The notes: generated from the letters alone by a model not told the origin. 64,000 nucleotides of DNA from Bacteroidia bacterium (GCA_016788065.1 JAEUTI010000008.1:62428-126427), one strand, 5' to 3'; counted from the first letter of the stretch, positions 5,119-24,664 are shown. Translations and numbers: made by a program.

Positions 5119-6696
5119 ATGCAACAACTCAATAATTTAAAGTGCTTTCTTCTAATATTCATGATTTTCATACTCTTTGGAAATCAACATGTTTATGGAA
5201 CGCATGCTGCCGGATCAGATTTGACATATACTTGTTTGGGAGGAAATCAATACAGACTTGAGGCGACTTTTTATCGCGATTGCAATGGGATTCCTGAACC
5301 TGCTTTTATCACCTTTTACTACCGTTCTGCATCATGTGGTTTTAATTACAACGTGACAGCAACTCCAGATTCAGGCTCCGGAGTAGAAATTTCTGTGCCA
5401 TGCAGTTCTGCAGTATCTACATGCAATGGAGGAACTGAATCCGGAGTTAGAAAATTTGTCTATCATGCTACTATTAACCTTCCCGGTAATTGTGCCGATT
5501 GGGTCTTTAGTTATTCGGTATGTTGTCGTAATTGCACCATCTCAACTATACAGGACCCGTGTGGAAGTGGTTCAAATCTTTATGTTGAAGCAAGGTTGAA
5601 TAATTTGAACGCAATCTGTAACACATCACCTGTTTTTTCCAATAACCCAATTGCATTCGTATGTCTAGGCCAAAATTTCAATTTCAATCAGGGCGTTTAT
5701 GATGCTGATGGTGACTCTTTATCATACTCTTTTATCACCCCAAAAACAGGTCCCACAACTCAGGTACAATTTATTGCTCCTGCATCTGTCTCTGCGCCAC
5801 TTGCTTCTTCTACACCATTTCTGATTAACCCGGTGACCGGCGATATTAATTTTACACCTTCTCAAATACAGGTAGGAATTCTTGCCGTTTTAGTTAAGGA
5901 ATTTCGGAATGGTGTATTTATTGGAAGTGTAATCAGAGACATTCAGGTTTATACTACCTCTTGTAACAATGCTATCCCTACTGCTTCCGGCATAAACGGT
6001 ACAACAAATTATGATATTACAGTATGTCCCGGACAAACAATTTGCTTTACAGTATTCACATCAGATGCCGATTCCACTCAATCAGTTTCAGCTTTCATTA
6101 ACAATACTATTCCGGGAAGTACAATAACCAACTCTGGTGGATCCAGACCCGAAATTAATTTTTGCTGGACGCCTGATTTCGATGATGTGGATTTGTTGCC
6201 AAATAGTTTCACTATCACAGTACGCGATAATAGTTGCCCATCAAACGGTCTTCAAACATTCTCATACAATATTTTTGTACCATCACCATATTTTACCACA
6301 AACACTCAAACTGTTTCCTGTTTTGCAGGAAGTGATGGAATTGCTGTTGCAACTCCCGTCTATGGAAATCTTTATACTTATAGCTGGAACACATCACCCG
6401 TGCAGAACACAGCTACTGCAACAGGACTTACAGCCGGCACTTATGCACTGACCGTTAGTGATACTTCAGGATGCTCTTTAACTGTTCCAGTGGTGATTGA
6501 ACAACCTTTACCTTTGCAAGTCAGCGGTAGTGTAACTTCGGCTTCCTGTGGTTCATGTAATGGTGCCATTACAACAGCTGTATCTGGTGGTAATCCAGGC
6601 TATAGTTTTTTATGGAACGACGGTAACCCCACTCCTTTCAGAACGAATTTATGTGCTGGAATATATACTGTAACAGTTACCGATTTTAACGGATGA
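5119..6696 (+). CDS. SprB-repeat cell-surface adhesin, N-terminal fragment ending at an in-frame TGA
   Basis: Signal peptide MQQLNNLKCFLLIFMIFILFGNQHVYG and a Cys-rich N-terminal region. It is followed by tandem repeats of about 80 aa with the SprB-repeat signature (…C.G..DG.I…SGG..PY.Y.WS.G……L.AG.Y.VTVTD..GC…). It ends …TVTDFNG*, where the consensus has Cys. Confidence 0.75.
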   Translation: MQQLNNLKCFLLIFMIFILFGNQHVYGTHAAGSDLTYTCLGGNQYRLEATFYRDCNGIPEPAFITFYYRSASCGFNYNVTATPDSGSGVEISVPCSSAVSTCNGGTESGVRKFVYHATINLPGNCADWVFSYSVCCRNCTISTIQDPCGSGSNLYVEARLNNLNAICNTSPVFSNNPIAFVCLGQNFNFNQGVYDADGDSLSYSFITPKTGPTTQVQFIAPASVSAPLASSTPFLINPVTGDINFTPSQIQVGILAVLVKEFRNGVFIGSVIRDIQVYTTSCNNAIPTASGINGTTNYDITVCPGQTICFTVFTSDADSTQSVSAFINNTIPGSTITNSGGSRPEINFCWTPDFDDVDLLPNSFTITVRDNSCPSNGLQTFSYNIFVPSPYFTTNTQTVSCFAGSDGIAVATPVYGNLYTYSWNTSPVQNTATATGLTAGTYALTVSDTSGCSLTVPVVIEQPLPLQVSGSVTSASCGSCNGAITTAVSGGNPGYSFLWNDGNPTPFRTNLCAGIYTVTVTDFNG

Positions 6697-6927
6697 GTTC
6701 AAAATTCTTCATTCATTGTAAACCAGCAAACCTCGTTCGTCGCAACAGTTATTGAAACTCCGGTTTCTTGCACTGGTGGGAATGATGGTGTTGCAGATAT
6801 TTCTATCACAGGTGGCACAGGACCATTTGAGTTTCTTTGGTCAGATGGCCAAACAACAGAAGATGCCATTGCACTTGCGCCGGGAAATTATACTGTTACT
6901 ATCACCGATGCCGGAAGTTGCAGTGCC

Positions 6928-8589
6928 ATGATTCAGGTTCAAATTACAGAACCTGATCCGGTTTTTATTTCAGCTACTATTGCGAACGTAACCTGTTATG
7001 GTTCTAGTGACGGACTTGTTGATGTTTCAGTTTCAGGTGGAACCGGACCCTACGATTATTCCTGGTCTGATGGTAGTGTATCGGAAGATATTTCAATGCT
7101 TGCTACCGGAAATTATGTGCTTACAGTCTCCGATTTATTCGGTTGCATAGCACAGGAACAATTTCTGATTGCTCAACCTGATCCGATTATTGTTTCTTTT
7201 ACATCTACTGATGCAACATGTTTCGGAAGCACAGATGGTATGATAAATGTTTCTGCAAACGGTGGTATTGCACCATATAGTTACCTCTGGCAAAATGGCT
7301 CAACAGATACAACGTTGCAGCATCTTGCATCAGGAACGTATATGCTTACCGTTACCGATAATCATTCATGTTCGATTTTAACAGCCTTTGCAATTTCTCA
7401 ACCCGCTGAAATAGCTGTTCAGTTTCAGCAGACTTTTAACCCATGTATCGCCGGAACGGGTTCTGTCACAACGGTAATTTCAGGAGGTATTGATCCTTTA
7501 ATTTATAGCTGGTCTGATGGAAGTTCTGCTTCATCGGCAACTGGATTAAACCCCGGTGTGTATACGTTAACAATTACGGATGCTTTGGGTTGTATGGTTT
7601 CAGACACTATCAGCGTTGGAGGCATTACCAATCCTATGGCACTTGCATTTAATTCTGTTTCTGCCAGCTGCAGTGATTCTGATGACGGAAGTGCTGATCT
7701 AACAATTTCCGGCGGACAGGAACCCTATTCATATTTGTGGTCGAATGGAAATACCGCCGAAGATTTATTTTTAGTTATAGGTGGAAATTATGATGTTACA
7801 GTAACAGATGCCAATGGATGCACTGTTTCCGGAAATGTACTTATCGAAGCTCCTGCACCAATGGCAGTTTCATTTAATGTTATTCCTGTTGGATGTGGTG
7901 TAACTAAAGGATCGATAACAGCAATTGCTGCCGGTGGTACACCGGGCTACTCCTATACATGGAATATTGGTGAAACCACATCTTTTATTGATGACCTGGA
8001 TCCCGGAATTTTTACAGTAACCATATCAGATATCAATGGTTGTAGTGTTACAGATTCAGTTGAATTAGTTGCCTATCCTGAACTAATTGCCACTGTTGAA
8101 ACCGGAGATGCTTCGTATTCGGGTGCTGCAGATGGGTCTATTGATCTTTCTGTGAACGGTGGTGCTATACCTTACTTGTATGAGTGGTCTGATGGCTCTG
8201 TTACAGAAGATTTAATTGGCGTGACGGCAGGTATCTATACCGTAACTATCACAGACTTCTCCGGCTGTCAGTTAACTCTTACAGCAGAAGTATTGAATAC
8301 ATCTCTTACATCTGTAAATAATGAGGAAACCAATCAACCTCAAATTTTGATTTCGCAACTGGGAGGAAATACTTTCCTTGAGGTAACTGCATCCGGTAAT
8401 GAAAATTACAACCTTGAATTGTATGATAATTCCGGTCGGCTTATCAGTGGATTTTTAACAGGATACATGCAAATAGGGGAGAGCCGGAAAATTGAAATCC
8501 CTGCAAAAAATATTGCTTCCGGTTTGTATATAATTGTGCTTCGTGGAAATGATACAGTAAAAAGCATGAAGATGATGCTTCGCAACTAA
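6928..8589 (+). CDS. SprB-repeat adhesin, C-terminal fragment with a type-A T9SS C-terminal sorting domain
   Basis: Same frame as 5119..6696. SprB-repeat homology (FVATVIETPVSCTGGNDGVADISITGGTGPFEFLWSDGQTTEDA…) already starts at about 6697, directly after the TGA, with the first ATG at 6928. Eight or more further SprB repeats follow. The last ~80 aa (…NTFLEVTASGNENYNLELYDNSGRLISGF…IASGLYIIVLRGNDTVKSMKMMLRN) match the type-A T9SS CTD pattern. Confidence 0.7.
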   Translation: MIQVQITEPDPVFISATIANVTCYGSSDGLVDVSVSGGTGPYDYSWSDGSVSEDISMLATGNYVLTVSDLFGCIAQEQFLIAQPDPIIVSFTSTDATCFGSTDGMINVSANGGIAPYSYLWQNGSTDTTLQHLASGTYMLTVTDNHSCSILTAFAISQPAEIAVQFQQTFNPCIAGTGSVTTVISGGIDPLIYSWSDGSSASSATGLNPGVYTLTITDALGCMVSDTISVGGITNPMALAFNSVSASCSDSDDGSADLTISGGQEPYSYLWSNGNTAEDLFLVIGGNYDVTVTDANGCTVSGNVLIEAPAPMAVSFNVIPVGCGVTKGSITAIAAGGTPGYSYTWNIGETTSFIDDLDPGIFTVTISDINGCSVTDSVELVAYPELIATVETGDASYSGAADGSIDLSVNGGAIPYLYEWSDGSVTEDLIGVTAGIYTVTITDFSGCQLTLTAEVLNTSLTSVNNEETNQPQILISQLGGNTFLEVTASGNENYNLELYDNSGRLISGFLTGYMQIGESRKIEIPAKNIASGLYIIVLRGNDTVKSMKMMLRN

Positions 8590-8614
8590 TATTTGTTTTG
8601 ATTACTTTTTGCCG

Positions 8615-8650
8615 ATCCCTGCCAGTTGAGTGGCAGGGATTTTTGTTTTA
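8615..8650 (+). terminator. Rho-independent terminator after the adhesin gene
   Basis: ATCCCTGCCA-gttgag-TGGCAGGGAT is a perfect 10-bp stem, followed by TTTTGTTTT. Confidence 0.55.
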
Positions 8651-8758
8651 ACGCAATTATTGACCAGAACATTAAAACTTCGGGTTGCCCTTATATACCT
8701 CTATTTGGAATTAATTTAAAAAGGTAGTCTGAATATTAAACTGTCAATTTACCTAAAT

Positions 8759-9352
8759 TTGCATCAAATGTGGTCAATTGTAAAATATTGCATCCCGGCG
8801 GTCCTGTTTGCCGGTTTGTTTGTTGGGTGTGGAAATAACCTCAGCGAGCAATTGAGTATCCTGGAAATGCCAGCACTCTCAGGAACTACTGTTTCTTTAA
8901 AAAAAGAAATGGGTTCCACCGCTACAGTTTATCTTTTCTTATCACCCGATTGCCCAATGTGCATCAGTTCTTCCGGAGACATACGTGAACTGGCGGAATC
9001 TTTCACCTCGCAAGGAATCTCGTTCTTAACAGTTTATCCGGGTACTTTTTATTCAGTTTCCGAAATAGATTCTTTCCATACCCATTATAATATCGGTTTA
9101 CCTGCTATTCTTGATACTGCATTTGTGCTTACGAAATTGTTGGATGCAACAGTAACGCCGGAAGTTGTTGTACTTAGTCCTGAATACGAAACATTATACT
9201 CAGGTGCTATCAATGAAAGAGCCGCGAGTCTGGGGAGAAAACGTCAGTTGGTTGGGGAGCATTATTTGAAAAAAGTTCTCGAAGCTGTTCTTTCGAAGAA
9301 AGCAATTCCGTTCAAGCGTGTTAATCCTGTTGGATGTTTTATTGAATCATGA
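8759..9352 (+). CDS. TlpA/ResA-like thiol-disulfide oxidoreductase lipoprotein (thioredoxin fold, CPMC active site)
   Basis: Lipoprotein signal …AVLFAGLFVGCGNN. It has the CxxC motif CPMC in a redoxin-like context (TVYLFLSPDCPMCISS). Its stop overlaps the next start (ATGATG), which is translational coupling. Confidence 0.7.
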   Translation: MHQMWSIVKYCIPAVLFAGLFVGCGNNLSEQLSILEMPALSGTTVSLKKEMGSTATVYLFLSPDCPMCISSSGDIRELAESFTSQGISFLTVYPGTFYSVSEIDSFHTHYNIGLPAILDTAFVLTKLLDATVTPEVVVLSPEYETLYSGAINERAASLGRKRQLVGEHYLKKVLEAVLSKKAIPFKRVNPVGCFIES

Positions 9353-10761
9353 TGAAAAATTATTTTCAACTAAAATATGCGATTGTAAAACAACTGATAC
9401 TTGTTGTCACTGGTTTTGCAATTTTAATCTCTTGTAATTCCGGCAAACAACAAACGGATCTAACTTTTAATAAGGAAATTGCTCCTTTGATTCATAAGCA
9501 CTGTACAACTTGTCACCGGCCTGGTGAAGCCGGACCATTTAATTTGATTACCTATAAAGATGTAAGAAAAAAAGCCAAAACTATTGCTCGCGTAGTTGAA
9601 ACGGGTGTCATGCCACCATGGCCGGCAGATCCGGAATACACTCATTTTGTCGGGGAGAAAATTTTAACTAATGCAGAAAAAGAAATGATTGTAACATGGG
9701 TCAATGCTGGTTGTCCCGAAGGAAAGGCTTCAGACCTGAAACCAGCTCCCATCTATCCGGAAGGTTCACAATTAGGAAAGCCTGATGTTGTAATTCGAAT
9801 GGAGGAACCGTTCACAATTCCCGGTGATAACCGTGATCGGTTTATGGTTTTTAAGATTCCTTATGAGTTGGATAGAGATACTTTTCTGAGAATGGTTGAA
9901 TATGTTCCGGGCAACCGAAAACTTTCGCATCATGTAAATGGTCATATTATTCAATACGACGACAAGCTTAAAAAAGATGTGTTTGTTGGTCCCCGATATG
10001 TTGACCGGGAAGATGCAGGAACTCTTGACTCCTGTTACAAGTTTTTGAAATTACTTAATGATGATGAGACCTATCCATTACTTACTCCTAGTGTATTCAA
10101 TTTTTTACCAGGTGTTTTACCTCAACAATATCCTGATGGAATAGGAGGGTACCGTATTAAAAAGAAAGGCGCTATCCTGATGCGTGATCTTCACTATGGA
10201 CCTACTCCGGTTTCTGAAACAGATCAGCCACATGTCAATTTGTTTTTTAGTCCAAAGCCACCATCGCGTCCTTTTATGGAAACGCAATTGGGTACTCTGG
10301 GAATTTCCGAAATTGTACCTCCTCTGTTAATTCCACCCGACACCGTCATGAAATTTGTAACCAAAGCATTAATTTATCATGATATATCATTGGTTACTAT
10401 AAATCCACATATGCATTTGTTGGGTAAATCATTCCTGGCATATGCGATTACTCCACAAGCCGACACCATTCGGTTGGTAAGAATTCCAAAGTGGGATTTC
10501 AGGTGGCAATATTTCTATACATATCCAACTATGCTTAAAATACCCGCGGGATCAACTATTGTCGCCGAAGGAGTATTTGATAATACCAAAAACAATCCAA
10601 ATAATCCCTTTAGTCCACCCCGGGAAATCACCGGTTTAGGTGGCAGCATGCGAACAACAGATGAAATGTTTCAACTCATTCTCACTTTTTTACCTTATTT
10701 CCCGGGTGATGAACAAATTCGTCTTGATAACATTTTGCCGGGTCAAACCGGATTGGAATGA
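9349..10761 (+). CDS. Lipoprotein with an N-terminal cytochrome c domain fused to a copper type II (PHM/DBH-like) monooxygenase-like domain
   Basis: Lipobox ILISCNSG. It has the heme motif CTTCH with flanking PGEAGPFNL. Candidate Cu-site ligands run in PHM/DBH order: SHHVNGH…DLHYG (CuH-like), then INPHMHLLG…TTDEMFQLIL (CuM-like H-x-H…M, compare TTDEMC…YY in DBH/PHM). Domain assignment is from recalled motifs. Confidence 0.5.
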   Translation: MMKNYFQLKYAIVKQLILVVTGFAILISCNSGKQQTDLTFNKEIAPLIHKHCTTCHRPGEAGPFNLITYKDVRKKAKTIARVVETGVMPPWPADPEYTHFVGEKILTNAEKEMIVTWVNAGCPEGKASDLKPAPIYPEGSQLGKPDVVIRMEEPFTIPGDNRDRFMVFKIPYELDRDTFLRMVEYVPGNRKLSHHVNGHIIQYDDKLKKDVFVGPRYVDREDAGTLDSCYKFLKLLNDDETYPLLTPSVFNFLPGVLPQQYPDGIGGYRIKKKGAILMRDLHYGPTPVSETDQPHVNLFFSPKPPSRPFMETQLGTLGISEIVPPLLIPPDTVMKFVTKALIYHDISLVTINPHMHLLGKSFLAYAITPQADTIRLVRIPKWDFRWQYFYTYPTMLKIPAGSTIVAEGVFDNTKNNPNNPFSPPREITGLGGSMRTTDEMFQLILTFLPYFPGDEQIRLDNILPGQTGLE

Positions 10762-14100: not shown

Positions 14101-14661
14101 ATCAGCATCTGTTTCTTCCAGCTTCTGGAAAGTTTGTTTTTTTCTGATTTTATATTTGGAAATTCCGGCTGCTTCTTCCAGCAAAAATTTGATTGTGTTA
14201 TTCCGGTCATTCAGAATCTCATCAATCATTTTTAATTCAATAATTGCGTAACTGTCTGACCCAATTCCGGTATCCAGAAAAAGATCTGTAATGTCTTTTA
14301 ACCTGCAGGTAACATTATTTAATAAATATTCACTTTCTCCGGTACGGTACAATCTTCTGCTGATGCAAACAGTTGAGTATTCAGTTGAAAGTACCCCTTT
14401 ATTGTTCTCAAAAGTTAGGTGTACTTCAGCCAGATTTGCGGGCTTCCGGTTTTTTGTTCCATTGAAAATAATGTTCTCCATTTTTTCGGAGCGCAGCATA
14501 CGGGTTTTTTGTTCTCCCAATACCCAGCGAATGGCATCAACCACATTCGATTTCCCGGAACCATTTGGCCCGACAACTGCCGTTACACCTTTGTCGAAGT
14601 GAATAGTTACTTTATCACCAAAACTTTTAAAGCCTTTTATTTCTAATGTTGTAAGACGCAT
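11104..14661 (-). CDS. smc: Chromosome segregation protein SMC
   Basis: 1185 aa. N-terminal Walker A (GPNGSGKSN), long coiled-coil arms, a hinge, and a C-terminal LSGGEKTLTA signature with a Walker B DE. Confidence 0.95.
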   Translation of the reverse strand: MRLTTLEIKGFKSFGDKVTIHFDKGVTAVVGPNGSGKSNVVDAIRWVLGEQKTRMLRSEKMENIIFNGTKNRKPANLAEVHLTFENNKGVLSTEYSTVCISRRLYRTGESEYLLNNVTCRLKDITDLFLDTGIGSDSYAIIELKMIDEILNDRNNTIKFLLEEAAGISKYKIRKKQTFQKLEETDADLNRVNDLLFEIEKSLKQLESQAKKTQKFYRMKDEYKEVSMAYSLYAVREFRESLQDLQKREESISDEKLQHHVDLDVIEANIQKLKTESLEKEKNLSTVQKELNDIILLITKNENEIKNVKEKISFLHDKQKQLSHQNVTDEQTIAELNESITSLTGEKTTEEEALKSLEHQLSEMKQNVEDNKHLYEESVGELKSLNQQLHELRQQINRYETQAAVRQARSNSIGEELKRLNDQIQANETKLATLDQEISKIVPERERLEKESAAAKKHRDDFEQKLRETENKLRTLNQQLAEEKRKSDIKSNEFELTKNLLEKMEGFPESIKFLKSPNSQFKQVPLVSEVISCDDEYKNAIENYLEPFLNHFIVQNTREAWEALQMLNTSSKGRAHFFVLDNLKSLPTPSAKDIAGCKRALSLTEFDGAYAKLFEHLLGNVYLYDGGDDISQFDTSSIEGSYILLSKNGKFLRQRYVLAGGSIGLGDGKRTGKQKNLQKLSDEIKAHQEVIDSLQKQIAATEKEQTEQRNTFSEAGRNVSKTDGDFARTTGQVNTLKNNREFLVQAIDYTRTTVNQLTEENENLNKPEEHPEAIKGFSIESQRTELQNLLDQQKIKQDLSNELQKHVSDMTNAYNQKNIQFFQQQNKLQNISRDISFKSNQVSNLTRSREEHLIELEGITQQLKSLHEQQHTAEALFKEHTEKKSSAEVIVRTQEDDYYKSKGEIDKEEKLIAEKRKQKEHSDGIIREIHNQINELRLKMTSLKERLNIEFNIVLEEIMEQEPNPELDAEELRTRSEKLKKQLSDFGPINPMALESFKEIKERHDFIVKEQEDLKNAKESLLKTIAEIDNTAKEKFMEAYHAVRENFIHVFRSLFSEEDNCDLILTDLANPLESDVQIIAQPKGKKPLSIHQLSGGEKTLTATALLFGIYLLKPSPFCIFDEVDAPLDDSNIDKFNKIIKKFSAESQFIIITHNKKTMAATDIMYGITMVEQGVTQVVPVDLREYA

Positions 14662-14956
14662 TTCACGATCTGCTAATTAATTGGATTTTTGAAAACAGGA
14701 GTGCAAAAATAGATTTTCCACTTAGTCTGAACCTAACAAAATTAAGATAATTGCCTCGTTTTTCATATCTTTTTAACAAGTTGGCTGATTGTCAGCTATT
14801 TGATTTGTGAACAAACGGAAGCAGGCGAGTGAAAAAGTTCAGAAAGTGAATTAATGCCTGAACTCACGTCAAAATGTCATTAAAAAGCCACAAAATGAAA
14901 TTTATTGTCAAACCAATTAAAAAAAACAGATATTTGTTCACATAAGTTTCGATGGA

Positions 14957-15457
14957 ATGGATGATCTGAAGGTCATATTATATATAGTGGGCGCTATTAT
15001 CTGGGTGGTTTACAATAACTACCGTAAGATAATGGATGAATCCAAGAAACGGAATCCGGCCAAACCGGTGCCTCAGGAAGTACCAGCACCTCCAATTCAG
15101 ATGCCTCCAGTCAGTAAAACACAGCAAACGACTCGACGTCAGACCAATGCATTGCCTAAACCAGCTCGCCAAAGTTCGCCGGTTCCAACCAGAAAGCCTT
15201 TGAGAGAATCTGCAAGGCCTTCGTTGGCTTCGGGACGTAAACCAATGATTGCTCCGAGGTTATCACAACAAAAAAAGAATGAAGTTTCCATGAATTATAA
15301 CCTTGAAGGTGGTGCTATTCAACCTTCTAAAATTGTACAATTTGAAGAAACACTAACAGTCAGTGAATATGGGAATTCTGTTTTAAATGACCTCCGGGAT
15401 GGTGATATGCAAAAAGCAATTATATATTCTGAAATACTCAAAAGACCTTATAACTAG
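14957..15457 (+). CDS. Hypothetical membrane-anchored proline-rich protein
   Basis: N-terminal TM (VILYIVGAIIWVVY), a Pro/Gln/Arg-rich linker and a short conserved-looking C-terminal region. It is divergent from smc. Confidence 0.45.
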   Translation: MDDLKVILYIVGAIIWVVYNNYRKIMDESKKRNPAKPVPQEVPAPPIQMPPVSKTQQTTRRQTNALPKPARQSSPVPTRKPLRESARPSLASGRKPMIAPRLSQQKKNEVSMNYNLEGGAIQPSKIVQFEETLTVSEYGNSVLNDLRDGDMQKAIIYSEILKRPYN

Positions 15458-15585
15458 CCACTTGAATGAACATACCGGTCAATTAATTGTAAAAATTAAA
15501 ATAATGTTTGGATATTATTTTTAAATATTCATACTTTTACGCTCCTCATTATAAATTATTAAAAACCTAACATAAAAATAACCCT

Positions 15586-18500
15586 ATGCTGAGAAAAATT
15601 TACCTATTAACAGCTGCTTTTTTAGTTGCTACCGGCTTTGCGGCTTTTGCCCAAACCGGTTCAATTAAAGGTAAGGTACTTGACAAAACCACCAAGGAAC
15701 CTTTACCCTTCGCGAATGTTGTCGTGGAGATGAATGGCAGTCAGGCGGGCGGTGCGCAGACCGACTTCGATGGTAACTTCACCATCAAACCGCTTCAACC
15801 CGGCAAGTATAACCTGAAAGCCTCTTTCGTTGGTTATACCGCGGCAGAAATCACCGGAGTACTGGTGTCTGCCGACAAAATTACCTTTCAGGACATTTCA
15901 ATGCCTAAAGGTGCAGTCGATATCACTGCTGTAGAGGTTACCTCTTACAAAAACCCGATCATCGACAAGGGTAACCCTTCATCACAAACTACTGTGACCC
16001 AGGAAGAAATTCAGGTTGCACCAACCAGAGATGTGAAGTCAGTTGCTTCTACAACTGCCGGTGTATTCCAGAAAGATGAAGGAGATGATGTTAACGTACG
16101 CGGATCCAGAAGCGATGCTACCGACTACTATGTAGACGGTATCAAAGTTAGAGGTTCCACAGCACTTCCTCAGTCAGGTATCGAGCAAATCACGGTTGTA
16201 ACCGGTGGTGTTCCTGCTCAGTACGGTGATGCTACAGGAGGTATCATTAATATCACTACCAGAGGTCCTTCAAAGGAATTCTTCGGTGGAGTTGAATTTG
16301 TAACATCTGAATTATTCGATAAATATGGCTACAACCTAGCTGGTTTGAATATCTCCGGTCCGGTTTGGTCTAAAAAAGATGCTGAAGGCAAAGTTGACAG
16401 AACTATTGTTGGTTTCTTCCTTTCAGCTGAGTACCAGATTGAAAAGGATCCTGATCCATCAGCAATCGGTATGTACAAAGTGAAAGATGATATTTTTAAT
16501 GATATCAAAAGTAATCCGCTTTCTTCAACCTTAGCAGGTGGAACTGTTTTCCGTAACAAAACAGAGTACCTGAGAGCTGATGCTTTCGAAAAAATTAAAA
16601 TCAAACAAAATACTGGTTCTGCAGGATACCGTGTATCAGGTAAGATTGATATTCAACCGGTTGACAATATTACATTGACATTCGGAGGTTCTTACGATCA
16701 CAGTGATAAAAATGAGTTTATCTACACTTACTCATTATATAACTATGATAATAACAACCAGAAAATTGATGACTCCTGGAGGGTTTTTGGTCGTTTGACT
16801 CAAAAATTAGGTGGATCAAAAAGCAGTACTGAAGGTTCTGCATCTGTAATCAAGAATGCATTCTATTCGATTCAGGTAGATTATAATAAAACTAAAACCA
16901 TTTATCAGGATGAAGATCATGAAGATCGTTATTTCGATTATGGTTATATCGGTAAGTTCAATACTATCAAAAATCAAAACCTGTTCCTGAATCAGGTATT
17001 CTCGATTGATCCTATTACAGGTGATACCATCTTCACTATATTTGATAATAATGGTAACGGTATTTTGTATGAACAAGCAGCCTTACCAGGTGATTCTGTA
17101 ATTCAATATACCGGAGGTGGAGTGAATCCATTAACTCAGGCTTACACTGATCAGTATTTTACTCTTGCAGGCGACGATTACCAACAGTATTATTCAACAC
17201 TTTCTCAGGTTGCAGTAAACGGTGGTATCATCAATGGAGCGTTACCAAGAAATACTTATTCTCTTTACAGAAGTCCTGGTTACACTTACAACCAGTATCG
17301 TGTTGTTGAAGGTTCTCAATTCCGTGTTTCTGCTTCAGTTTCTGCCGACGTGAAAGATCATGCTATCGTAGCAGGATTTGAATATGAGCAACGCTCTGAT
17401 CAGGAATTCGTAATTAATCCTGTTGGTCTTTGGGGACTTGCAAGATTAAGAGCAAATGAAAACAACCAACAGCTTGACAGAAACAGCCCAACTTACATTG
17501 GTAATACTGTTTACTATCCACGTGCTTACAGCAACATCGACGGTCTAAGTGGTTTCTATGAAAACCTTAGAGCAAAATTGAATGCTTCTGGTTACAATCT
17601 CGGAATTTCTGATTTTGTTGATATCGATAATCTTGACAGAAGTTTACTTTCTCTTGATCTGTTCACTGCTGACGAATTATTAAATTCAGGAAATCAATTC
17701 ATCAACTATTATGGATATGATTATAAAGGTGAAAAGCAAAGCGGAACGCCTTCATTTGATGATTTCTGGACTGCAACTGATGCATCAGGAAATTATACAC
17801 GTCCGGTTGCTGCCTTCGAACCTATTTATATGGCAGGTTACATTCAGGATAAGTTCGCAATCAATGACCTTATCTTCAACGTAGGTCTTCGTGTTGACCG
17901 TTTTGACGCAAACCAAAAAGTATTAAAAGACAGATATCTGCTTTATCCTGCATATACTGCGGGACAAAAAGCTCCGAATCGTCCATCTAACATCGGTGAT
18001 GACTTTATTGTTTATGTTGATGATGTTAATGATCCTGAAAATGCAAATATCGTAGGTTACCGTGACGAAGACACCTGGTATGATGCAAGTGGTGTTCAGG
18101 TATCAAATCCTTCTATCCTTGCTCTTCAATCAGGTGGTGAAGTTGCTCCTTGGCTTTTAGATACAGATCTTGCAAACAATGGTGTTCAGTTAACTAAATT
18201 CAAACCATCTGACAGCTTTAAGGATTATGAGCCATCTGTATCTGTGATGCCTCGTATCGCTTTCTCTTTCCCAATTTCTGATGAAGCACTCTTCTTTGCT
18301 CACTATGATGTATTGACTCAGCGTCCTCCATCAAGATCAAGAAGTAACCCAATTGATTACTATTTCATCGAATCTCAAGGTGCATTGTTGAATAACCCAG
18401 CTCTTAAACCAGAGCGTACTACCGATTATGAAATTGGTTTCAAACAAACACTTTCAAAAAGTTCTGCATTCACAATCTCTGCATTCTACCGCGAACTTCG

Positions 18501-19308
18501 TGATATGATCCAGCAGACAGCTGTTAACTTCGCTTATCCTAAAACTTATCTTACATTCGATAACATCGATTTTGGAACTGTTAAAGGTCTGAACTTCGGT
18601 TACGATATGAGAAGAACAGGTAACGTTCGTTTAAGCGCAAATTACTCGCTTCAGTTTGCTGATGGAACCGGTTCTGGTGACAGAACTTCTGATAAACTTC
18701 TTCAGAATGGTTTCCCAAACCTGAGAACAATTGCTCCACTTGATTTCGATCAGCGTCATGCAATTACTGTTTCTGTTGATTACCGTTATGAAAGTGGTAA
18801 AGACTACAACGGTCCAATGATTAAGAATACACAGATTTTTGCTAACACAGGATTGAATGTTGTAATGCGTGCCGGTTCAGGTACTCCATACAGCCGTCAG
18901 CGTGATGTTACTACTCAGGCAAACAATATCGGACTTCAACAAGTTGGATCAGGTCTGCTTGATGGTGAAATCAACGGTTCAAGATTGCCATGGCAATATC
19001 GTATCGATCTGAAAGTAGATCGTGATTTTGAACTTAAATTTGGCAAATCTGAAGGCAGCAAACCTGTTTTCCTGAATGTCTATGTTCAAATTCAAAACTT
19101 ATTTGATACAAGAAACATCGTGAGTATTTACCGCTACACTGGTAATGCTGATGATGATGGTTATCTTGCTTCTGCAGTTGGTCAATCTCAAATCCCATTG
19201 CAAACAGATCCAACCGCATTCGTTGATCAATACAACATTAAAGTGAACGATCCATCAAACTACAGCCTTCCAAGAAGAGCAAGGATCGGTGTTAAACTTG
19301 ATTTTTAA
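15586..19308 (+). CDS. TonB-dependent outer-membrane receptor (CarboxypepD_reg-like N-domain + plug + beta-barrel), unusually long at 1240 aa
   Basis: Signal peptide. It has a CarboxypepD_reg-like domain (GSIKGKVLDKTTKEPLPFANVVV…GNFTIKPLQPGKYNLKASFVGY) and a plug (…DVNVRGSRSDATDYYVDGIKVRG…IEQITVVTGGVPAQYGDATGGIINITTRG). It ends …RIGVKLDF with a C-terminal aromatic residue. Confidence 0.85.
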   Translation: MLRKIYLLTAAFLVATGFAAFAQTGSIKGKVLDKTTKEPLPFANVVVEMNGSQAGGAQTDFDGNFTIKPLQPGKYNLKASFVGYTAAEITGVLVSADKITFQDISMPKGAVDITAVEVTSYKNPIIDKGNPSSQTTVTQEEIQVAPTRDVKSVASTTAGVFQKDEGDDVNVRGSRSDATDYYVDGIKVRGSTALPQSGIEQITVVTGGVPAQYGDATGGIINITTRGPSKEFFGGVEFVTSELFDKYGYNLAGLNISGPVWSKKDAEGKVDRTIVGFFLSAEYQIEKDPDPSAIGMYKVKDDIFNDIKSNPLSSTLAGGTVFRNKTEYLRADAFEKIKIKQNTGSAGYRVSGKIDIQPVDNITLTFGGSYDHSDKNEFIYTYSLYNYDNNNQKIDDSWRVFGRLTQKLGGSKSSTEGSASVIKNAFYSIQVDYNKTKTIYQDEDHEDRYFDYGYIGKFNTIKNQNLFLNQVFSIDPITGDTIFTIFDNNGNGILYEQAALPGDSVIQYTGGGVNPLTQAYTDQYFTLAGDDYQQYYSTLSQVAVNGGIINGALPRNTYSLYRSPGYTYNQYRVVEGSQFRVSASVSADVKDHAIVAGFEYEQRSDQEFVINPVGLWGLARLRANENNQQLDRNSPTYIGNTVYYPRAYSNIDGLSGFYENLRAKLNASGYNLGISDFVDIDNLDRSLLSLDLFTADELLNSGNQFINYYGYDYKGEKQSGTPSFDDFWTATDASGNYTRPVAAFEPIYMAGYIQDKFAINDLIFNVGLRVDRFDANQKVLKDRYLLYPAYTAGQKAPNRPSNIGDDFIVYVDDVNDPENANIVGYRDEDTWYDASGVQVSNPSILALQSGGEVAPWLLDTDLANNGVQLTKFKPSDSFKDYEPSVSVMPRIAFSFPISDEALFFAHYDVLTQRPPSRSRSNPIDYYFIESQGALLNNPALKPERTTDYEIGFKQTLSKSSAFTISAFYRELRDMIQQTAVNFAYPKTYLTFDNIDFGTVKGLNFGYDMRRTGNVRLSANYSLQFADGTGSGDRTSDKLLQNGFPNLRTIAPLDFDQRHAITVSVDYRYESGKDYNGPMIKNTQIFANTGLNVVMRAGSGTPYSRQRDVTTQANNIGLQQVGSGLLDGEINGSRLPWQYRIDLKVDRDFELKFGKSEGSKPVFLNVYVQIQNLFDTRNIVSIYRYTGNADDDGYLASAVGQSQIPLQTDPTAFVDQYNIKVNDPSNYSLPRRARIGVKLDF

Positions 19309-19343
19309 TCATTAATTAAACAAAGAAAAAAAATAACCAAAAT

Positions 19344-22300
19344 ATGATGAAGCGCTCTATAATCACCAACTTTTCTCTGGCCTCTGCTGTAATCCTGGGT
19401 ACTCTCGGATTGCCGGCTACAGCCAAAGAAAACGTGGGCGTTACAGGAAACTCCAATAAGAATAGTGCTATTGCTGCTAACTGTAACCCAACCACTGCAC
19501 AGGCTGATCTCGACATCAATAACGTCCGTACTACTGTCCTCGTAGGAGGAGATATGTGGTGGGATCTTTCGAATGCAAAATATGAAGTTCCTATCGGTAC
19601 TAATAAACATGCCCTGTTCGCAGGTGCATTGTGGATTGGTGGTATCGATGCCGGTGGACAAATTAAAGTTGCCGGTCAAACATATCGCCAGACAGGTATC
19701 GACTTCTGGGGTGGACCTATTGATACTAATGCTGTAAATATTACTCCTGATAAATGTCAGACTTATGACAAGCATTGGAAAGTAACTAAACAAGAAGTCC
19801 TTGATTTCATTGGTGACCCTAATGCGGCAACAAATGACATTAAGAGCTGGCCGGGTAATGGCGATCCTACTTCTAACGAGGGTACTTATCTTGCACCATT
19901 CGTAGATGTTAACGGTGACCTTGAATATGATTACCGTGATGGTGATTATCCCGGATATAATTTCGGTGGCGATTATCCATCAGTTCCTGGTACCATTAAA
20001 ACTGTTTGTAACGATTATATTTTCGGTGACAAAACACTTTGGTGGGTATTCAACGACGTAGGTAACGCTCACACTGAAACAAGTTCAGATCCTATCGGTC
20101 TTGAAATCCGTGCTCAGGCATTTGGTTTCAAAACTAATGATGAGATCAACAACATGACTTTCTACAAATATCAGATCATCAATCGTTCAACTCTTACCCT
20201 TACACAGACTTATTTCGGTCAATGGGTAGATCCGGATTTGGGAAATGCTGTAGATGATTATGTTGGTTGCGATGTTCCACGCGGTTTAGGTTTCTGCTAC
20301 AATGGTGATGCCGATGATGAAACTGCTTCAGGTTATGGTTTAAATCCTCCTGCTATCGGAGTTGACTTCTTCCAGGGACCTTTGGCTGATGTAAACGACT
20401 TAGTTGATAACGATCGTGATGGTTGTATTGACTGTACATTCATTGATTCAGCTGGAGTCACTCTTACTTATGACGACAATATCCTTGGTGAGCAAATCAT
20501 CATGTCTAAATTCGTTTACTATAATAACGTAAATAACTCACCAATCGGAAATCCTAACGGCTTTACTGATTTCTACAACTACCTACGCGGTATCTGGTTA
20601 GATAACCAACCAATTACTTATGGTGGCGACGGAAGAAATGCCGGAGCTCCTGTATGTAACTTCATGTTCCCGGGAACTACTGACCCTGATAACTTCCCTA
20701 CTTTGGGAGAGTGGTCTGAATTTACTGCAGGTAACCCACCTGAAGATCGTCGATTCCTTCAATCAGCCGGAACATTTACACTTACTCCTGGTGCTGTTAA
20801 CTATATCACAACCGGTGTTGTTTGGGCTCGTGCTCAACAAGGTGGTCCACAAGCTTCTGTTGATCTGATGAAACTTGCAGATGACAAAGCACAGGCATTG
20901 TTTGATAATTGCTTCAAACTTATCGATGGTCCGAATGCACCTGATATGGCTATCCGTGAATTAGACAAACGTCTTATCATTTCTTTAACTAATTATGATA
21001 CTACAGCAGTTGAGTTGTATGATCAGATTGACCCTACAATTGTTGGTGTTCCTGAAGACAGTGCACGTTTCAAATTCCAGGGATATCAGATATTCCAGTT
21101 GAAAGATGCTTCTGCAACTACTGCTGACTTTGGAAATCCTGACCGTATCCGTTTGGCACAACAAGTTGATATCAAAGATGGTGTTGCTCAAATCGTTAAC
21201 TTTAGTTTTGATCCAGCACTGAATGCGAACATTCCGATGGAAATGGTAAATGGTTCTGACAAAGGAATCAATCACACATTTGTTATCACTCAGGATTTAT
21301 TTGCTACAGGAAATACAGCTCTGATCAATCACAAGACCTATTACTTTACTGTTGTTTCTTATGCTTACAACCAGTACAAGAAATATGATCCGAATGATCC
21401 TGCTGCCCTTGATGGTCAGAAAAAACCATACCTGGCTGGTCGTAACAACATCAAAACCTATAGTGCAATTCCACATATCCCAACTCCGGAGAACAGTGGA
21501 CAGATTCTTGGGTCTGACTATGGTGATGGTCCTAGAATTAAACGTATCGAAGGACAAGGTAACGGTGGTATGATTCTCGACTTTGCAAATAATTACGAAA
21601 ATGATATCTTGAATGCTCCTTATCGCGTTCGTGAACCTGAGTATTTTGGTGGAAATGGTCCACTTCCTGTTAAAGTTTATGATCCTGTTTTAATTGAGAA
21701 CTTCAACTATGAAACTCGTTTCAACGGAGTAACTGATACAGATACCTGGAAGATGACTAATCTTTCAACCAACACTACTGTTGATTCTGAAAGAAGTCTT
21801 GGACAAAACAATGAGCAGGTATTCCCTGAGTGGGGACTAAGTGCTAATATCAAGAATATACTTGAGGCTGGAAAACCCGGTGCTGAGAACAATGGTTTAC
21901 TCGAATCAACTGTTGAATTCTCTGATGAAGATTTGAAATGGTTAGCTCCTTTAACTGATGCTGAAGATGCTTCTGCAGAAGACTGGATCCTTTCAGGTGC
22001 AGGTGGAACTTATGGCGGTCTTGATGACGGTCAGGTTTACGAAACAATGGTAAACGGTACCTGGGCGCCATACAAATTGACTTCTAAAACTTATCCGGGA
22101 CCAAAATGGTCAGGAATTGCGGAAGCTCAGATTTCACTTTCTCCGGGAGGTAACTCTAAGACTGCAATTGCAAGTGTTGATATCATCATCACTTCTGACA
22201 AAAGCAAATGGACTAGATCACCAGTTTTTGAAATTGGTGGAGGTACTACCGGTGCAGGAACTGTTGGTTCAGCAAAAGCATTCGACTTACGTAAATCACC

Positions 22301-23453
22301 TTCAATCGATAAAAATGGAAATCCTGATGGTACCGGTGATGGTATGAGCTGGTTCCCTGGTTATGCTGTGAATCTTGAGACTGGTGAGCGTTTAAATATT
22401 GCCTTCGGTGAAAATTCTATTTTAGGTGGTGAAAATGGTGCCGACATGAAATGGAATCCAACTGCGACACAATTTGATAACTCAATCAGTCCACCTGAGC
22501 CAGTATTTGGTGGTATGCATTACATCTATGTGTTTGGACACAATGGCGATGCTACCTTCAACGTAACAGTTAACGGAACGCCTACTGCATTCCTTGCTGA
22601 TGTTGCTCATTATGATGAAGGAAAATCAATCAAAGATCTTGCACAGCTTGGTGCAGGTGAATACCCAGGTGTTCCTTCTGCTAATACTACTGCAAAAAGA
22701 AATCTTTGGAAGGATGCGATGTATGTAAGTATTCCAATGCTTTCGGAAGACTTCTCTAGTCTTAACCTTCCTGATGGAATTCCTGCTGATGTGAAAGTTA
22801 GATTACGCGTTGCAAGAAGCTACAGAACTTATGCTACTTCTGATGTGTTGAAAAGTAATCAGTCATTGACTAGTGGTTCAACTTACTATATTGCTTCTGC
22901 TCCTGTGACTTATGACGGAACAACATACACTGAAGTAGGTGCGTCATTTGTTGCTGGTACAGTTACTGTATTTACAGGCGGTGGAACAGTTACTACTTCT
23001 GCTCCTGCAAACGGTTTTGATCCGCTGTATACTTTCGGTACTGCTGACCTTGCTAACACAACCAACAATGCAAGCGCTGCAACTACGGCTCTCGATCTGA
23101 TCAACGTTGTTCCTAATCCATACTATGCATTCTCCGGATACGAAGTATCGCAGTTGGACAACAGAATCAAAATCACGAATCTGCCTCCGGTATGTACTAT
23201 TTCAATCTTTACCAAGAATGGTACATTAATCAGGAAATTCAGCAGAGACGTTGCTAAAGACAACTCAGAAGGTATCGTGTATGATCCTGCTGTTCCTAAT
23301 ACAGAAACTTCAATTGATTGGGATCTGAAAAACCAAAAAGGTGTTCCTGTTGCTTCCGGTATGTATCTGATACACATTGAAGCTCCCGGCCTAGGTGAGA
23401 AAACACTTAAATGGTTCGGTATGATCAGGCCAATTGACCTTGATACATTCTAA
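19344..23453 (+). CDS. Large secreted beta-rich protein with a type-B (SprB-type) T9SS C-terminal sorting-domain-like terminus
   Basis: Signal peptide MMKRSIITNFSLASAVILGTLGLPATA. It is 1369 aa and rich in G, D, N and T, with a DNDRDG Ca-binding-like motif. The last ~110 aa (VPNPYYAFSGYEV…CTISIFTKNGTLIRKF…IDWDLKNQKGVPVASGMYLIHIEA…KTLKWFGMIRP) follow the type-B CTD pattern (PNAFTPNGDG…IFNRWG…WDG…G.Y.Y…G.V.LIR). It starts 35 bp after the TonB-dependent receptor gene. Confidence 0.6.
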   Translation: MMKRSIITNFSLASAVILGTLGLPATAKENVGVTGNSNKNSAIAANCNPTTAQADLDINNVRTTVLVGGDMWWDLSNAKYEVPIGTNKHALFAGALWIGGIDAGGQIKVAGQTYRQTGIDFWGGPIDTNAVNITPDKCQTYDKHWKVTKQEVLDFIGDPNAATNDIKSWPGNGDPTSNEGTYLAPFVDVNGDLEYDYRDGDYPGYNFGGDYPSVPGTIKTVCNDYIFGDKTLWWVFNDVGNAHTETSSDPIGLEIRAQAFGFKTNDEINNMTFYKYQIINRSTLTLTQTYFGQWVDPDLGNAVDDYVGCDVPRGLGFCYNGDADDETASGYGLNPPAIGVDFFQGPLADVNDLVDNDRDGCIDCTFIDSAGVTLTYDDNILGEQIIMSKFVYYNNVNNSPIGNPNGFTDFYNYLRGIWLDNQPITYGGDGRNAGAPVCNFMFPGTTDPDNFPTLGEWSEFTAGNPPEDRRFLQSAGTFTLTPGAVNYITTGVVWARAQQGGPQASVDLMKLADDKAQALFDNCFKLIDGPNAPDMAIRELDKRLIISLTNYDTTAVELYDQIDPTIVGVPEDSARFKFQGYQIFQLKDASATTADFGNPDRIRLAQQVDIKDGVAQIVNFSFDPALNANIPMEMVNGSDKGINHTFVITQDLFATGNTALINHKTYYFTVVSYAYNQYKKYDPNDPAALDGQKKPYLAGRNNIKTYSAIPHIPTPENSGQILGSDYGDGPRIKRIEGQGNGGMILDFANNYENDILNAPYRVREPEYFGGNGPLPVKVYDPVLIENFNYETRFNGVTDTDTWKMTNLSTNTTVDSERSLGQNNEQVFPEWGLSANIKNILEAGKPGAENNGLLESTVEFSDEDLKWLAPLTDAEDASAEDWILSGAGGTYGGLDDGQVYETMVNGTWAPYKLTSKTYPGPKWSGIAEAQISLSPGGNSKTAIASVDIIITSDKSKWTRSPVFEIGGGTTGAGTVGSAKAFDLRKSPSIDKNGNPDGTGDGMSWFPGYAVNLETGERLNIAFGENSILGGENGADMKWNPTATQFDNSISPPEPVFGGMHYIYVFGHNGDATFNVTVNGTPTAFLADVAHYDEGKSIKDLAQLGAGEYPGVPSANTTAKRNLWKDAMYVSIPMLSEDFSSLNLPDGIPADVKVRLRVARSYRTYATSDVLKSNQSLTSGSTYYIASAPVTYDGTTYTEVGASFVAGTVTVFTGGGTVTTSAPANGFDPLYTFGTADLANTTNNASAATTALDLINVVPNPYYAFSGYEVSQLDNRIKITNLPPVCTISIFTKNGTLIRKFSRDVAKDNSEGIVYDPAVPNTETSIDWDLKNQKGVPVASGMYLIHIEAPGLGEKTLKWFGMIRPIDLDTF

Positions 23454-23496
23454 TAGGAAATTAACTTAAACACGAACCTCATTAACCAATCAACAT

Positions 23497-24564
23497 ATGA
23501 AGCAATATATAAAACCTATATTAACCAGTTTACTCACTGCATCCCTGCTCGCTGTAGTAGTACCTGCTCAGGCAGGTAACGAAGACCGTGCCGGTCAGGC
23601 AGGTGCATCTGAGTTGCTGATAAACCCCTGGACTAAAAGTGCCGGATGGGGTGGATTGAACATTGCAAATGTCAGAGGCATGGAAGCACAGTTCAATAAC
23701 GTTGCAGGTCTTGCATTTACTAAGAAAACGGAAATTGCGTTCTCTTATACTAACTGGCTTAAAGGAGCCGATATCCAGATTAACTCTTTCGGTTTTTCTC
23801 AAAAAGTGGGAGAAACAGGAGTGCTTGCACTGGGTGTTATGTCGATGAATTTTGGCGATATTCAGGTAACTACTGTTGATCAGCCGGAAGGTGGAATCGG
23901 TACGTATACCCCGCAATTCATCAACCTGGGTCTTTCTTATGCAAAAGCATTCTCCAACAGTATTTATGGAGGTATGACTGTAAGAGTGATTTCTCAATCA
24001 ATATCTGATGTTAAAGCTCAGGGTGTTGCGTTTGATGCCGGTATCCAATATGTAACCGGAACAAATGAAGCAAAAGACAATTTGAAATTTGGTATCTCTC
24101 TGAAGAATGTTGGAACTCCAATGCGTTTCTCAGGTGATGGTCTCTCTTTCAGAGGAAATCCTCCTGTAGAAGCTACTTATCAGTTAACAATTCAGTCTCG
24201 TGCCGAGAAGTTTGAATTACCTTCTTTGGTAAATATTGGTGCATCTTATGATTATAAAATCATGGAAAATCACCGCTTGACTGGAGTTGCGGCCTTTACA
24301 TCAAACTCGTTTACTAACGATCAGTTCGGTCTTGGAATTGAATATGCTTTCAAAGAAATGTTCTCTCTTCGCGGAGGATATGTATTTGAAAAAGATATGA
24401 CAAGTGACGAAGATCGCGCAACTGCTATGTCAGGTTTGAATGCAGGTGTTTCAGTTGATGTGCCCCTGGGTAAAAGTGGAAAGAAATTCGGTATTGATTA
24501 TTCTTACAAATCAACCGAATTCTTCGACGGATGCCACAGCATAGGTGCCAGAATCATCCTCTGA
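23497..24564 (+). CDS. T9SS-associated FadL-like outer-membrane beta-barrel (PorP/SprF-family or PorV-like)
   Basis: Signal peptide …VVPAQA. It is 355 aa with alternating beta-strand composition. The N-terminal …ELLINPWTKSAGWGG…AGLAF block resembles the PorP/SprF / PorV family N-terminus. It sits directly downstream of a type-B-CTD cargo gene, where sprF-like genes usually lie. Confidence 0.5.
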   Translation: MKQYIKPILTSLLTASLLAVVVPAQAGNEDRAGQAGASELLINPWTKSAGWGGLNIANVRGMEAQFNNVAGLAFTKKTEIAFSYTNWLKGADIQINSFGFSQKVGETGVLALGVMSMNFGDIQVTTVDQPEGGIGTYTPQFINLGLSYAKAFSNSIYGGMTVRVISQSISDVKAQGVAFDAGIQYVTGTNEAKDNLKFGISLKNVGTPMRFSGDGLSFRGNPPVEATYQLTIQSRAEKFELPSLVNIGASYDYKIMENHRLTGVAAFTSNSFTNDQFGLGIEYAFKEMFSLRGGYVFEKDMTSDEDRATAMSGLNAGVSVDVPLGKSGKKFGIDYSYKSTEFFDGCHSIGARIIL

Positions 24565-24591
24565 TAAAAAAAAGAATTATCTTTGCAAAGT

Positions 24592-24630
24592 GAAAGAGGA
24601 CCCTTACCCAAGGGTCTTCTTTCATTTTAT
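24592..24630 (+). terminator. Rho-independent terminator closing the TonB-dependent receptor / cargo / OMP unit
   Basis: GAAAGAGGACCCTT-accc-AAGGGTCTTCTTTC is a 14-bp stem with one G·U pair, followed by ATTTTATT. Confidence 0.6.
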
Positions 24631-24664
24631 TGTGTTTAGTAATAATTGATTAAAACGTAAAAAA

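Follow-up and report, generated by a model that had tools for sequence, protein, structure and literature searches.

Why would a TonB-dependent transporter be encoded together with a large secreted protein and an outer-membrane barrel of a family associated with a type IX secretion system (T9SS)? The question is raised by three consecutive genes, here called A, B, and C, in a 64,000-nucleotide stretch of DNA from a Bacteroidia bacterium (GCA_016788065.1, JAEUTI010000008.1:62428-126427), which we refer to as a whole as the window and from whose first letter all positions are counted. All three genes lie on the plus strand: gene A (15586..19308) encodes a TonB-dependent transporter of 1240 amino acids, gene B (19344..23453) a secreted protein of 1369 amino acids that belongs to an uncharacterised family, and gene C (23497..24564) an outer-membrane barrel of 355 amino acids that belongs to the PorV/PorQ family. 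An earlier note on this DNA had proposed that B is a T9SS cargo with a type-B sorting domain and C its dedicated PorP/SprF-like partner, and that the pair feeds the transporter; as described below, the type-B and SprF identities fell, whereas the underlying idea, in which a T9SS cargo and an outer-membrane partner of its own are coupled to a TonB-dependent transporter, still stands in a modified version. The answer we favour is that B, delivered by the T9SS and docked on C by a C-terminal domain that is retained, captures, and perhaps processes, a probably glycan-like substrate outside the cell on behalf of A. We put this reading forward tentatively and think it nearly as apt to be right as wrong.

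The C-terminal domain of B (residues ~1250-1369; 23091..23450, plus strand) is, as judged by comparison with profile models, a divergent and enlarged type-A-like T9SS sorting domain that is closest to those of PorZ and PorU. It contains an internal insertion of ~20 residues and ends in an extra, nearly invariant 8-residue tail, R-P-x-D-L-D-[TS]-[FY]. When the whole protein was first scanned, the sole NCBIfam match was a weak one, in which the last ~100 residues aligned with the C-terminal end of PorZ model NF052228 (positions 662-740 of 757; E 1.7e-5, 23.5 bits, cut-off 260); the C-terminal end of the PorU model NF033707 was matched at 13.8 bits (cut-off 420). We rejected B as PorZ or PorU proper, because the C-terminal domain alone matches these models and does so far under their cut-offs. 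The resemblance recurs throughout the family. When the last 135 residues of 25 B-family members were compared with NCBIfam at E ≤ 1, the C-terminal regions of PorZ (best E 1.7e-11) and of PorU (best E 1.1e-7) were each matched by 25/25 and the type-A model TIGR04183 by 23/25 (best E 7.7e-6). The type-B model TIGR04131, on the other hand, gave no match to the B of the window at E ≤ 10, either with the whole protein or with its last 120 residues, and matched none of the 25 family members at E ≤ 1. Thus, the earlier note was right in that B ends in a T9SS-type domain and wrong in assigning that domain to type B. The best sequence match of the domain in the PDB, although not significant, was to the very C-terminus of PorZ (5M11), and some homologs of B carry the NCBI name “T9SS type A sorting domain-containing protein.” Conservation of the domain (0.77-0.80) equals that of the best-conserved core of B. 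Because the domain is conserved like the core and ends in an invariant tail, a lasting protein–protein contact fits better than a disposable signal. We note separately an ordinary type-A cargo of the T9SS, a protein of 553 amino acids that is encoded elsewhere in the window (6928..8589, plus strand) and carries four SprB repeats together with a canonical Por_Secre_tail. Its presence indicates that the organism has a T9SS, and it shows that the standard model detects normal sorting domains in this genome, unlike the divergent one of B.

The product of gene C, whose signal peptide ends in AQA, matches the PorV/PorQ family model NF033709 at 162.4 bits (cut-off 90), with residues 36-341 aligned to positions 3-312 of the 326 in the model. 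It reaches 85.4 bits on the PorQ equivalog NF033711 (cut-off 220) and 82.9 bits on the PorV equivalog NF033710 (cut-off 250). On the PorP/SprF model TIGR03519, it scores 12.8 bits (E 0.061, cut-off 90.55). The same picture was obtained with 25 orthologs of C, all of which match NF033709 (best E 7.6e-49) and only one of which, weakly, matches TIGR03519; their best E values on the PorV and PorQ equivalogs, 4.9e-26 and 3.7e-24, lie near those of the C in the window and clearly below the cut-offs. The sole PDB sequence match of C was to PorV of Flavobacterium johnsoniae (6H3I_F, E 8.8e-11 with a profile). Since C passes the cut-off of the family model yet that of neither equivalog, these scores place it in a putative third subfamily of PorV/PorQ barrels, apart from canonical PorV and PorQ. 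The expectation that B would be followed by a T9SS-associated outer-membrane barrel was therefore borne out, and the assignment of that barrel to PorP/SprF was not. In the T9SS attachment complex, PorV and PorQ serve as the outer-membrane barrels, with PorU bound to PorV and PorZ to PorQ; PorU and PorZ, which are substrates of the T9SS in their own right, keep their C-terminal domains, and it has been suggested that the cognate PorV-like barrels shield these domains from cleavage (PMC10202324). The B–C pair fits this pattern: the gene for C, a private barrel of the PorV/PorQ type, directly follows that of a cargo whose PorZ/PorU-like domain is conserved in the manner of an interaction surface, and our reading gains support from the fact that the two characterised PorV/PorQ members bind T9SS C-terminal domains (PMC10202324).

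Protein A is a true plug-and-barrel TonB-dependent transporter. A signal peptide (residues 1-22) is followed by a CarboxypepD_reg N-terminal domain (residues 26-116), which is common in Bacteroidota transporters, a plug (residues 130-220), and a β-barrel that ends in a C-terminal Phe. The corresponding Pfam scores are 62.5 bits for CarbopepD_reg_2, 48.4 bits for Plug (cut-off 23.9), and 49.3 bits for TonB_dep_Rec_b-barrel (cut-off 27). An AlphaFold2 (AF2) model of residues 119-1240, built from 63 aligned homologs, had a predicted local distance difference test score (pLDDT) of 87.1 and a predicted template modelling score (pTM) of 0.85. When this model was compared with solved transporters by Foldseek, it matched FptA, PirA, PhuR, Cir, PqqU, FhuA, BtuB, and XusA with target-normalised template modelling scores of 0.6-0.78 and E values down to 3e-26 at a sequence identity of 9-12%. 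A is ~450-600 residues longer than classical TonB-dependent transporters, in agreement with the earlier description of an oversized receptor; in the model, most of the surplus apparently resides in long loops that connect barrel strands, three or four in number and 60-137 residues each, the strand pattern having been read roughly off the secondary-structure string of the model rather than counted on coordinates. A candidate TonB box, ITAVEVTSY (residues 113-121; 15922..15948), lies between the N-terminal domain and the plug, and in 47 orthologs this segment is semi-conserved in sequence and keeps its alternating hydrophobic pattern. A SusC-like identity with a SusD partner was considered and rejected: the SusC/RagA model is not among the NCBIfam matches of A at E ≤ 0.01, and the B encoded downstream has neither a SusD match nor any other Pfam match.

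The arrangement of the three genes is not due to chance, as far as can be judged from its recurrence in other genomes. A scan seeded with B, with one genome per species, yielded 79 loci, all from metagenome-assembled Bacteroidota, which were compared with the window proteins by tblastn. In ~60 of the 79, A, B, C, GreA, and the HIT protein are collinear on one strand, at identities down to 41% for B, of 43-78% for A, and of 52-78% for C. The reverse test, seeded with A homologs of 49-53% identity, gave the same order in 3/3 contigs, including the 2.1-Mb contig OZ238992.1; in these, A is followed by a protein of 1380-1419 amino acids without a Pfam match, a protein of 352-362 amino acids, GreA, HIT, and RuvC. 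The linkage is also tight. The gap between A and B is 35 bp and that between B and C 43 bp, both are A-rich, and a scan of both for a hairpin or a Bacteroidetes-type promoter box found neither; the median gaps in 48 complete related loci are 34 bp (A–B) and 40 bp (B–C). Promoters of Bacteroidetes follow the consensus TTTG/TAnnTTTG, and we examined this motif in place of a sigma-70 promoter; a sigma-70-type scan, which returned fewer sites than did shuffled sequences, is uninformative for a Bacteroidota genome. Alignment of 17 upstream regions of related loci revealed a candidate promoter for the three genes at 15507..15539 (plus strand), consisting of a TTTG at -33 (15507..15510), a spacer of 21 nucleotides, and a -7-like box, TACTTTTA (15532..15539), that lies 46 nucleotides before the ATG of A; the TTTG and a box of the TACTTTTA type are both aligned and conserved across all 17 regions. 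After C, a predicted intrinsic-terminator hairpin (24587..24628, plus strand) has a 19-bp stem, a 4-nucleotide loop, and a T-rich tail, with a folding energy of -29 kcal/mol (z = -5.8) that was equalled in 0 of 200 shuffles. A hairpin occupies the matching position in 53 of 58 C–greA gaps of relatives, with a T-rich tail in 50 of those 53, and it is its position, not its sequence, that is kept among them. The open reading frames, gap lengths, and downstream hairpin were thus all found as the earlier note had claimed. Its proposal of one transcription unit is well supported by these comparative signals, because the gaps are tight in relatives, a conserved promoter precedes A, and a conserved hairpin follows C.

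Protein B itself begins with a Sec signal peptide (residues ~1-27) and has a body that is almost all β. No match was found when B was scanned against Pfam or compared with PDB chains, either as a single sequence or as a profile of 47 sequences. An AF2 model of residues 39-1238 (pLDDT 89.9, pTM 0.77) matches solved structures solely via a β-supersandwich of the galactose-mutarotase type, which is typical of proteins that handle carbohydrates and covers 250-320 of the 1,200 residues; it is located at residues ~225-500 (approximately 20016..20843, plus strand), which is also the most conserved block of B. For most of the ~1,200 residues of the body, the search of solved structures gave no close match. 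The structural comparison that the earlier note had put forward for the cargo body thus yielded a fold, the supersandwich, although neither a catalytic (α/α)6 barrel nor any other known catalytic fold was detected in the model. On the strength of the model, B therefore appears to contain one carbohydrate-associated fold. The family is very large: more than 6,400 homologs remain at 90% clustering, and an exhaustive HMMER search with B returned 7,570 clusters at 50% identity (E ≤ 0.001), 2,471 of them with E ≤ 1e-30. B is strongly conserved, at 41-84% identity over 1,300 residues, and many Asp, Glu, His, and aromatic residues are invariant. Members occur in environmental Flavobacteriales-like lineages, in records labelled Crocinitomicaceae, Vicingaceae, and Cryomorphaceae; these lineages are common in fresh water, sea water, and wastewater.

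B is also a multi-copy family, in that loci without A and C carry B paralogs in genomes that also have the triad. These solo paralogs have ~1300-1345 amino acids, lie in unrelated neighbourhoods (in locus L081, among LytTR response regulators and Y_Y_Y/His_kinase sensors), and have the same C-terminal tail where this was checked (P0036-type paralogs). A homolog from the cultured Lishizhenia tianjinensis (L080), at first a candidate copy of the triad, proved to be a solo paralog, and no triad was confirmed in a cultured strain. Second copies also occur at the triad, either in the order A-B-C-B' (L082 and L027) or just after greA (L017 and L029). The two B copies of L082 (ENA ERZ26052130, 4.38-Mb contig ctg19878c; 607..4770 and 6001..10158), which share one C, show 100% identity over residues ~790-1300, which drops to ~80% both in the first ~780 residues and in the C-terminal domain. 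Comparison of the two sequences suggests a constant C-terminal module joined to a diversifying N-terminal head; the pattern looks like the result either of a recent gene conversion of the C-terminal body or of diversification of the N-terminal half.

How might the three proteins work together? What was established directly is how the genes are ordered and how far this order is conserved, to which family or fold each protein belongs, and of what type the C-terminal domain of B is, and upon these we build the following model, in which A, B, and C would be expressed from one operon and would form an outer-membrane uptake complex made out of T9SS parts. B would be exported by Sec and carried across the outer membrane by the T9SS via its type-A-like C-terminal domain. 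This domain would remain uncut, and B would receive no lipopolysaccharide anchor; instead, it would dock non-covalently on C, as PorU does on PorV and PorZ on PorQ. On the cell surface, the β-rich body of B would capture, and possibly process, a substrate, probably some glycan or a glycoconjugate, which would be imported by the oversized A in a TonB-energised step. Several observations weigh against this model. The C-terminal domain of the B in the window is itself unmatched by the type-A model TIGR04183 and by Pfam PF18962 at E ≤ 10, its matches to the PorZ and PorU models are weak (E 1e-5 to 1e-2), and the resemblance to PorZ and PorU may reflect just a shared fold. Further, solo B paralogs have neither a PorV-like gene nor a tightly linked transporter beside them (L010, L061, L080, L081), which implies that B-type proteins are not strictly dependent on an adjacent C. 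The supersandwich is by itself no proof of glycan binding. Finally, the neighbours of the locus are housekeeping genes, namely that for SMC upstream on the opposite strand and those for GreA, a HIT protein, and RuvC downstream, and no regulator, riboswitch, or catabolic enzyme is encoded nearby, unlike in typical nutrient-uptake loci.

The same observations can be arranged differently. B and C might be a lineage-specific T9SS module, an attachment-complex-like pair analogous to PorZ/PorQ, that serves envelope housekeeping rather than nutrient uptake, for example with B presenting a surface glycolipid or glycan to the sortase, and A might then be a structural partner or a mere conserved neighbour. 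The C-terminal domain of B is most like that of PorZ, the PorQ and PorV scores of C are about equal, the surroundings are of the housekeeping kind and the position beside greA-HIT-RuvC is very stable, B is strongly conserved over 1,300 residues, and a glycan-binding-type fold would suit the handling of lipopolysaccharide. This explanation, which we consider unlikely although it deserves to be taken seriously, has to contend with a B that is without β-propellers and resembles PorZ in the C-terminal domain only, far below the cut-off of the model. It also has to contend with a B that is multi-copy and whose N-terminal half diversifies between tandem copies with one C (L082), which is more like substrate recognition than like a part of a machine, and it leaves the constant tight linkage to a full plug-and-barrel transporter unexplained. 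That linkage also bears on the suggestion that B is a surface coat protein or adhesin (an S-layer subunit or filament) anchored via C, with A co-transcribed and functionally independent. S-layer proteins and adhesins of about this size are known among T9SS cargos, B is large, almost all β, and multi-copy and has a T9SS sorting domain, and paralogs without A exist. However, in most of the 48 complete loci A and B are separated by 5-50 bp with no promoter or terminator signal in between, which argues for a joint function; moreover, the high conservation of B is unlike that of typical fast-evolving adhesins, and B has no repeat architecture. We regard a coat or adhesin as rather improbable.

A role for B as an enzyme of an unrecognised family, acting on a glycan or other polymer, is suggested by the supersandwich, which normally accompanies catalytic domains in glycoside hydrolases and phosphorylases, and by the many invariant Asp, Glu, His, and aromatic residues. 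Such an enzyme would be secreted by the T9SS and lose its C-terminal domain by normal cleavage, after which it would either be released or become linked to lipopolysaccharide, and C would be a private export shuttle only. Set against this, no known catalytic fold was detected and the structural matches leave most of the body uncovered, and a signal destined for cleavage is not expected to be conserved like the core or to end in an invariant tail, so that we think this explanation distinctly improbable. The original proposal, with B as an SprB-type cargo and C as its PorP/SprF partner, is correct as to how the genes are ordered and as to its general logic, in which a T9SS-associated barrel comes after a cargo. 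At the level of family membership it is refuted by the profile scores given above for B (TIGR04131) and for C (TIGR03519 and NF033709), which were the very comparisons that the earlier note had named, and we accord it hardly any credence. We therefore retain, tentatively, the reading in which B captures substrate for A while docked on C.

The surroundings of the triad contain further elements. The region between C and greA (24565..24664) holds an exact match to the TAnnTTTG box, TATCTTTG, at 24578..24585, which ends just before the terminator hairpin. The order of box and then hairpin is found in 27/58 relatives, with a median spacing of 7 nucleotides from the end of the box to the stem. Judging by this order, the hairpin after C may also be part of the greA leader, in which case the greA transcript would have it at its extreme 5' end; it resembles a leader terminator or attenuator for greA, and the greA leader of Escherichia coli (GraL) is a comparable element. 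The box-hairpin element has no match in Rfam. Rfam was also scanned for riboswitches and other RNA elements that might hint at the substrate, and there was no match in the whole window at the gathering score and none in 14500..15700 at E ≤ 1. Upstream, between the SMC gene and A, an open reading frame of 166 amino acids (14957..15457, plus strand) has an N-terminal transmembrane helix, a long spacer rich in Pro, Lys, and Gln, and a short conserved C-terminus. This layout is TonB-like, yet a match to TonB_C or to any other Pfam or NCBIfam model is absent; the frame is kept in place in closer relatives, at 26-44% identity, and is separated from A by the conserved promoter. Two more open reading frames on the plus strand, of 525 amino acids (5119..6696) and 470 amino acids (9349..10761), have no Pfam match at E ≤ 1e-5.

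If our reading of B, C, and A is correct, the triad would represent an unrecognised class of uptake machine, in which the capture subunit of the transporter is a T9SS-secreted non-lipoprotein held by a private PorV/PorQ-type barrel via an uncleaved C-terminal domain. This broader proposal is possible, and we would hold it with more doubt than conviction. Under it, PorV/PorQ barrels would serve generally as docking sockets and would include a third functional subfamily, the T9SS would be linked directly to TonB-dependent import, and the B-family paralogs, in their thousands, would act as capture heads that can be exchanged. The favoured reading, if it holds, would mean that the docking principle of PorZ/PorQ and PorU/PorV has been reused outside the secretion machine, and it would give Bacteroidota a third way of fixing a protein to the cell surface beside a transporter, besides surface lipoproteins and lipopolysaccharide-linked T9SS cargo. 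It would also provide a first functional handle on a very large family (~7,500 clusters at 50% identity) that is without a Pfam domain or a solved relative.

Each kind of component in this locus is known from elsewhere, and the combination and the B family are undescribed in the literature that we found. In particular, literature and full-text searches returned no description of a PorV/PorQ-family paralog with a dedicated cargo beside a TonB-dependent transporter, in line with the statement in the earlier note that such a coupling is not a described architecture; a mention of PorV in a paper on the β-barrel assembly machinery (BAM) of Bacteroidota was set aside, as it concerns BamG, an unrelated FadL-like subunit. 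Of the known systems, the PorZ–PorQ and PorU–PorV pairs of Porphyromonas gingivalis are like B and C in that the secreted partner has a type-A-like C-terminal domain and the barrel is of the same family. They differ in that the body of B is unrelated, with neither the β-propellers nor the C25 peptidase domain of PorZ and PorU, in that the B–C pair is encoded with a TonB-dependent transporter, and in that retention of the domain is, for B, a prediction. SprB–SprF of Flavobacterium and PG1035–PorP follow the same genetic logic, a cargo gene and then the gene of its own outer-membrane partner, and differ from B–C both in the class of the sorting domain and in the barrel family. On the side of the transporter, FptA, PirA, PhuR, Cir, and BtuB, classical transporters for siderophores, haem, and cobalamin, have the plug and β-barrel fold in common with A, which exceeds them by the ~450-600 residues described above. 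Pairs of a TonB-dependent transporter and a surface accessory protein are common in Bacteroidota, SusC/SusD and BtuB/BtuG being examples. These systems, and XusA/XusB, whose complex (PDB 9gbc) is among the structural matches of A, resemble A and B in that a transporter is co-encoded with a large partner that is exposed, or in the case of B would be exposed, at the surface. SusD is helical and TPR (tetratricopeptide repeat)-like, whereas B is nearly all β and not SusD-like. Above all, the partner in SusC/SusD, BtuB/BtuG, and XusA/XusB is a surface lipoprotein, whereas the signal peptide of B is of the Sec and not the lipoprotein type, and B comes with a T9SS sorting domain and a PorV-like barrel of its own.

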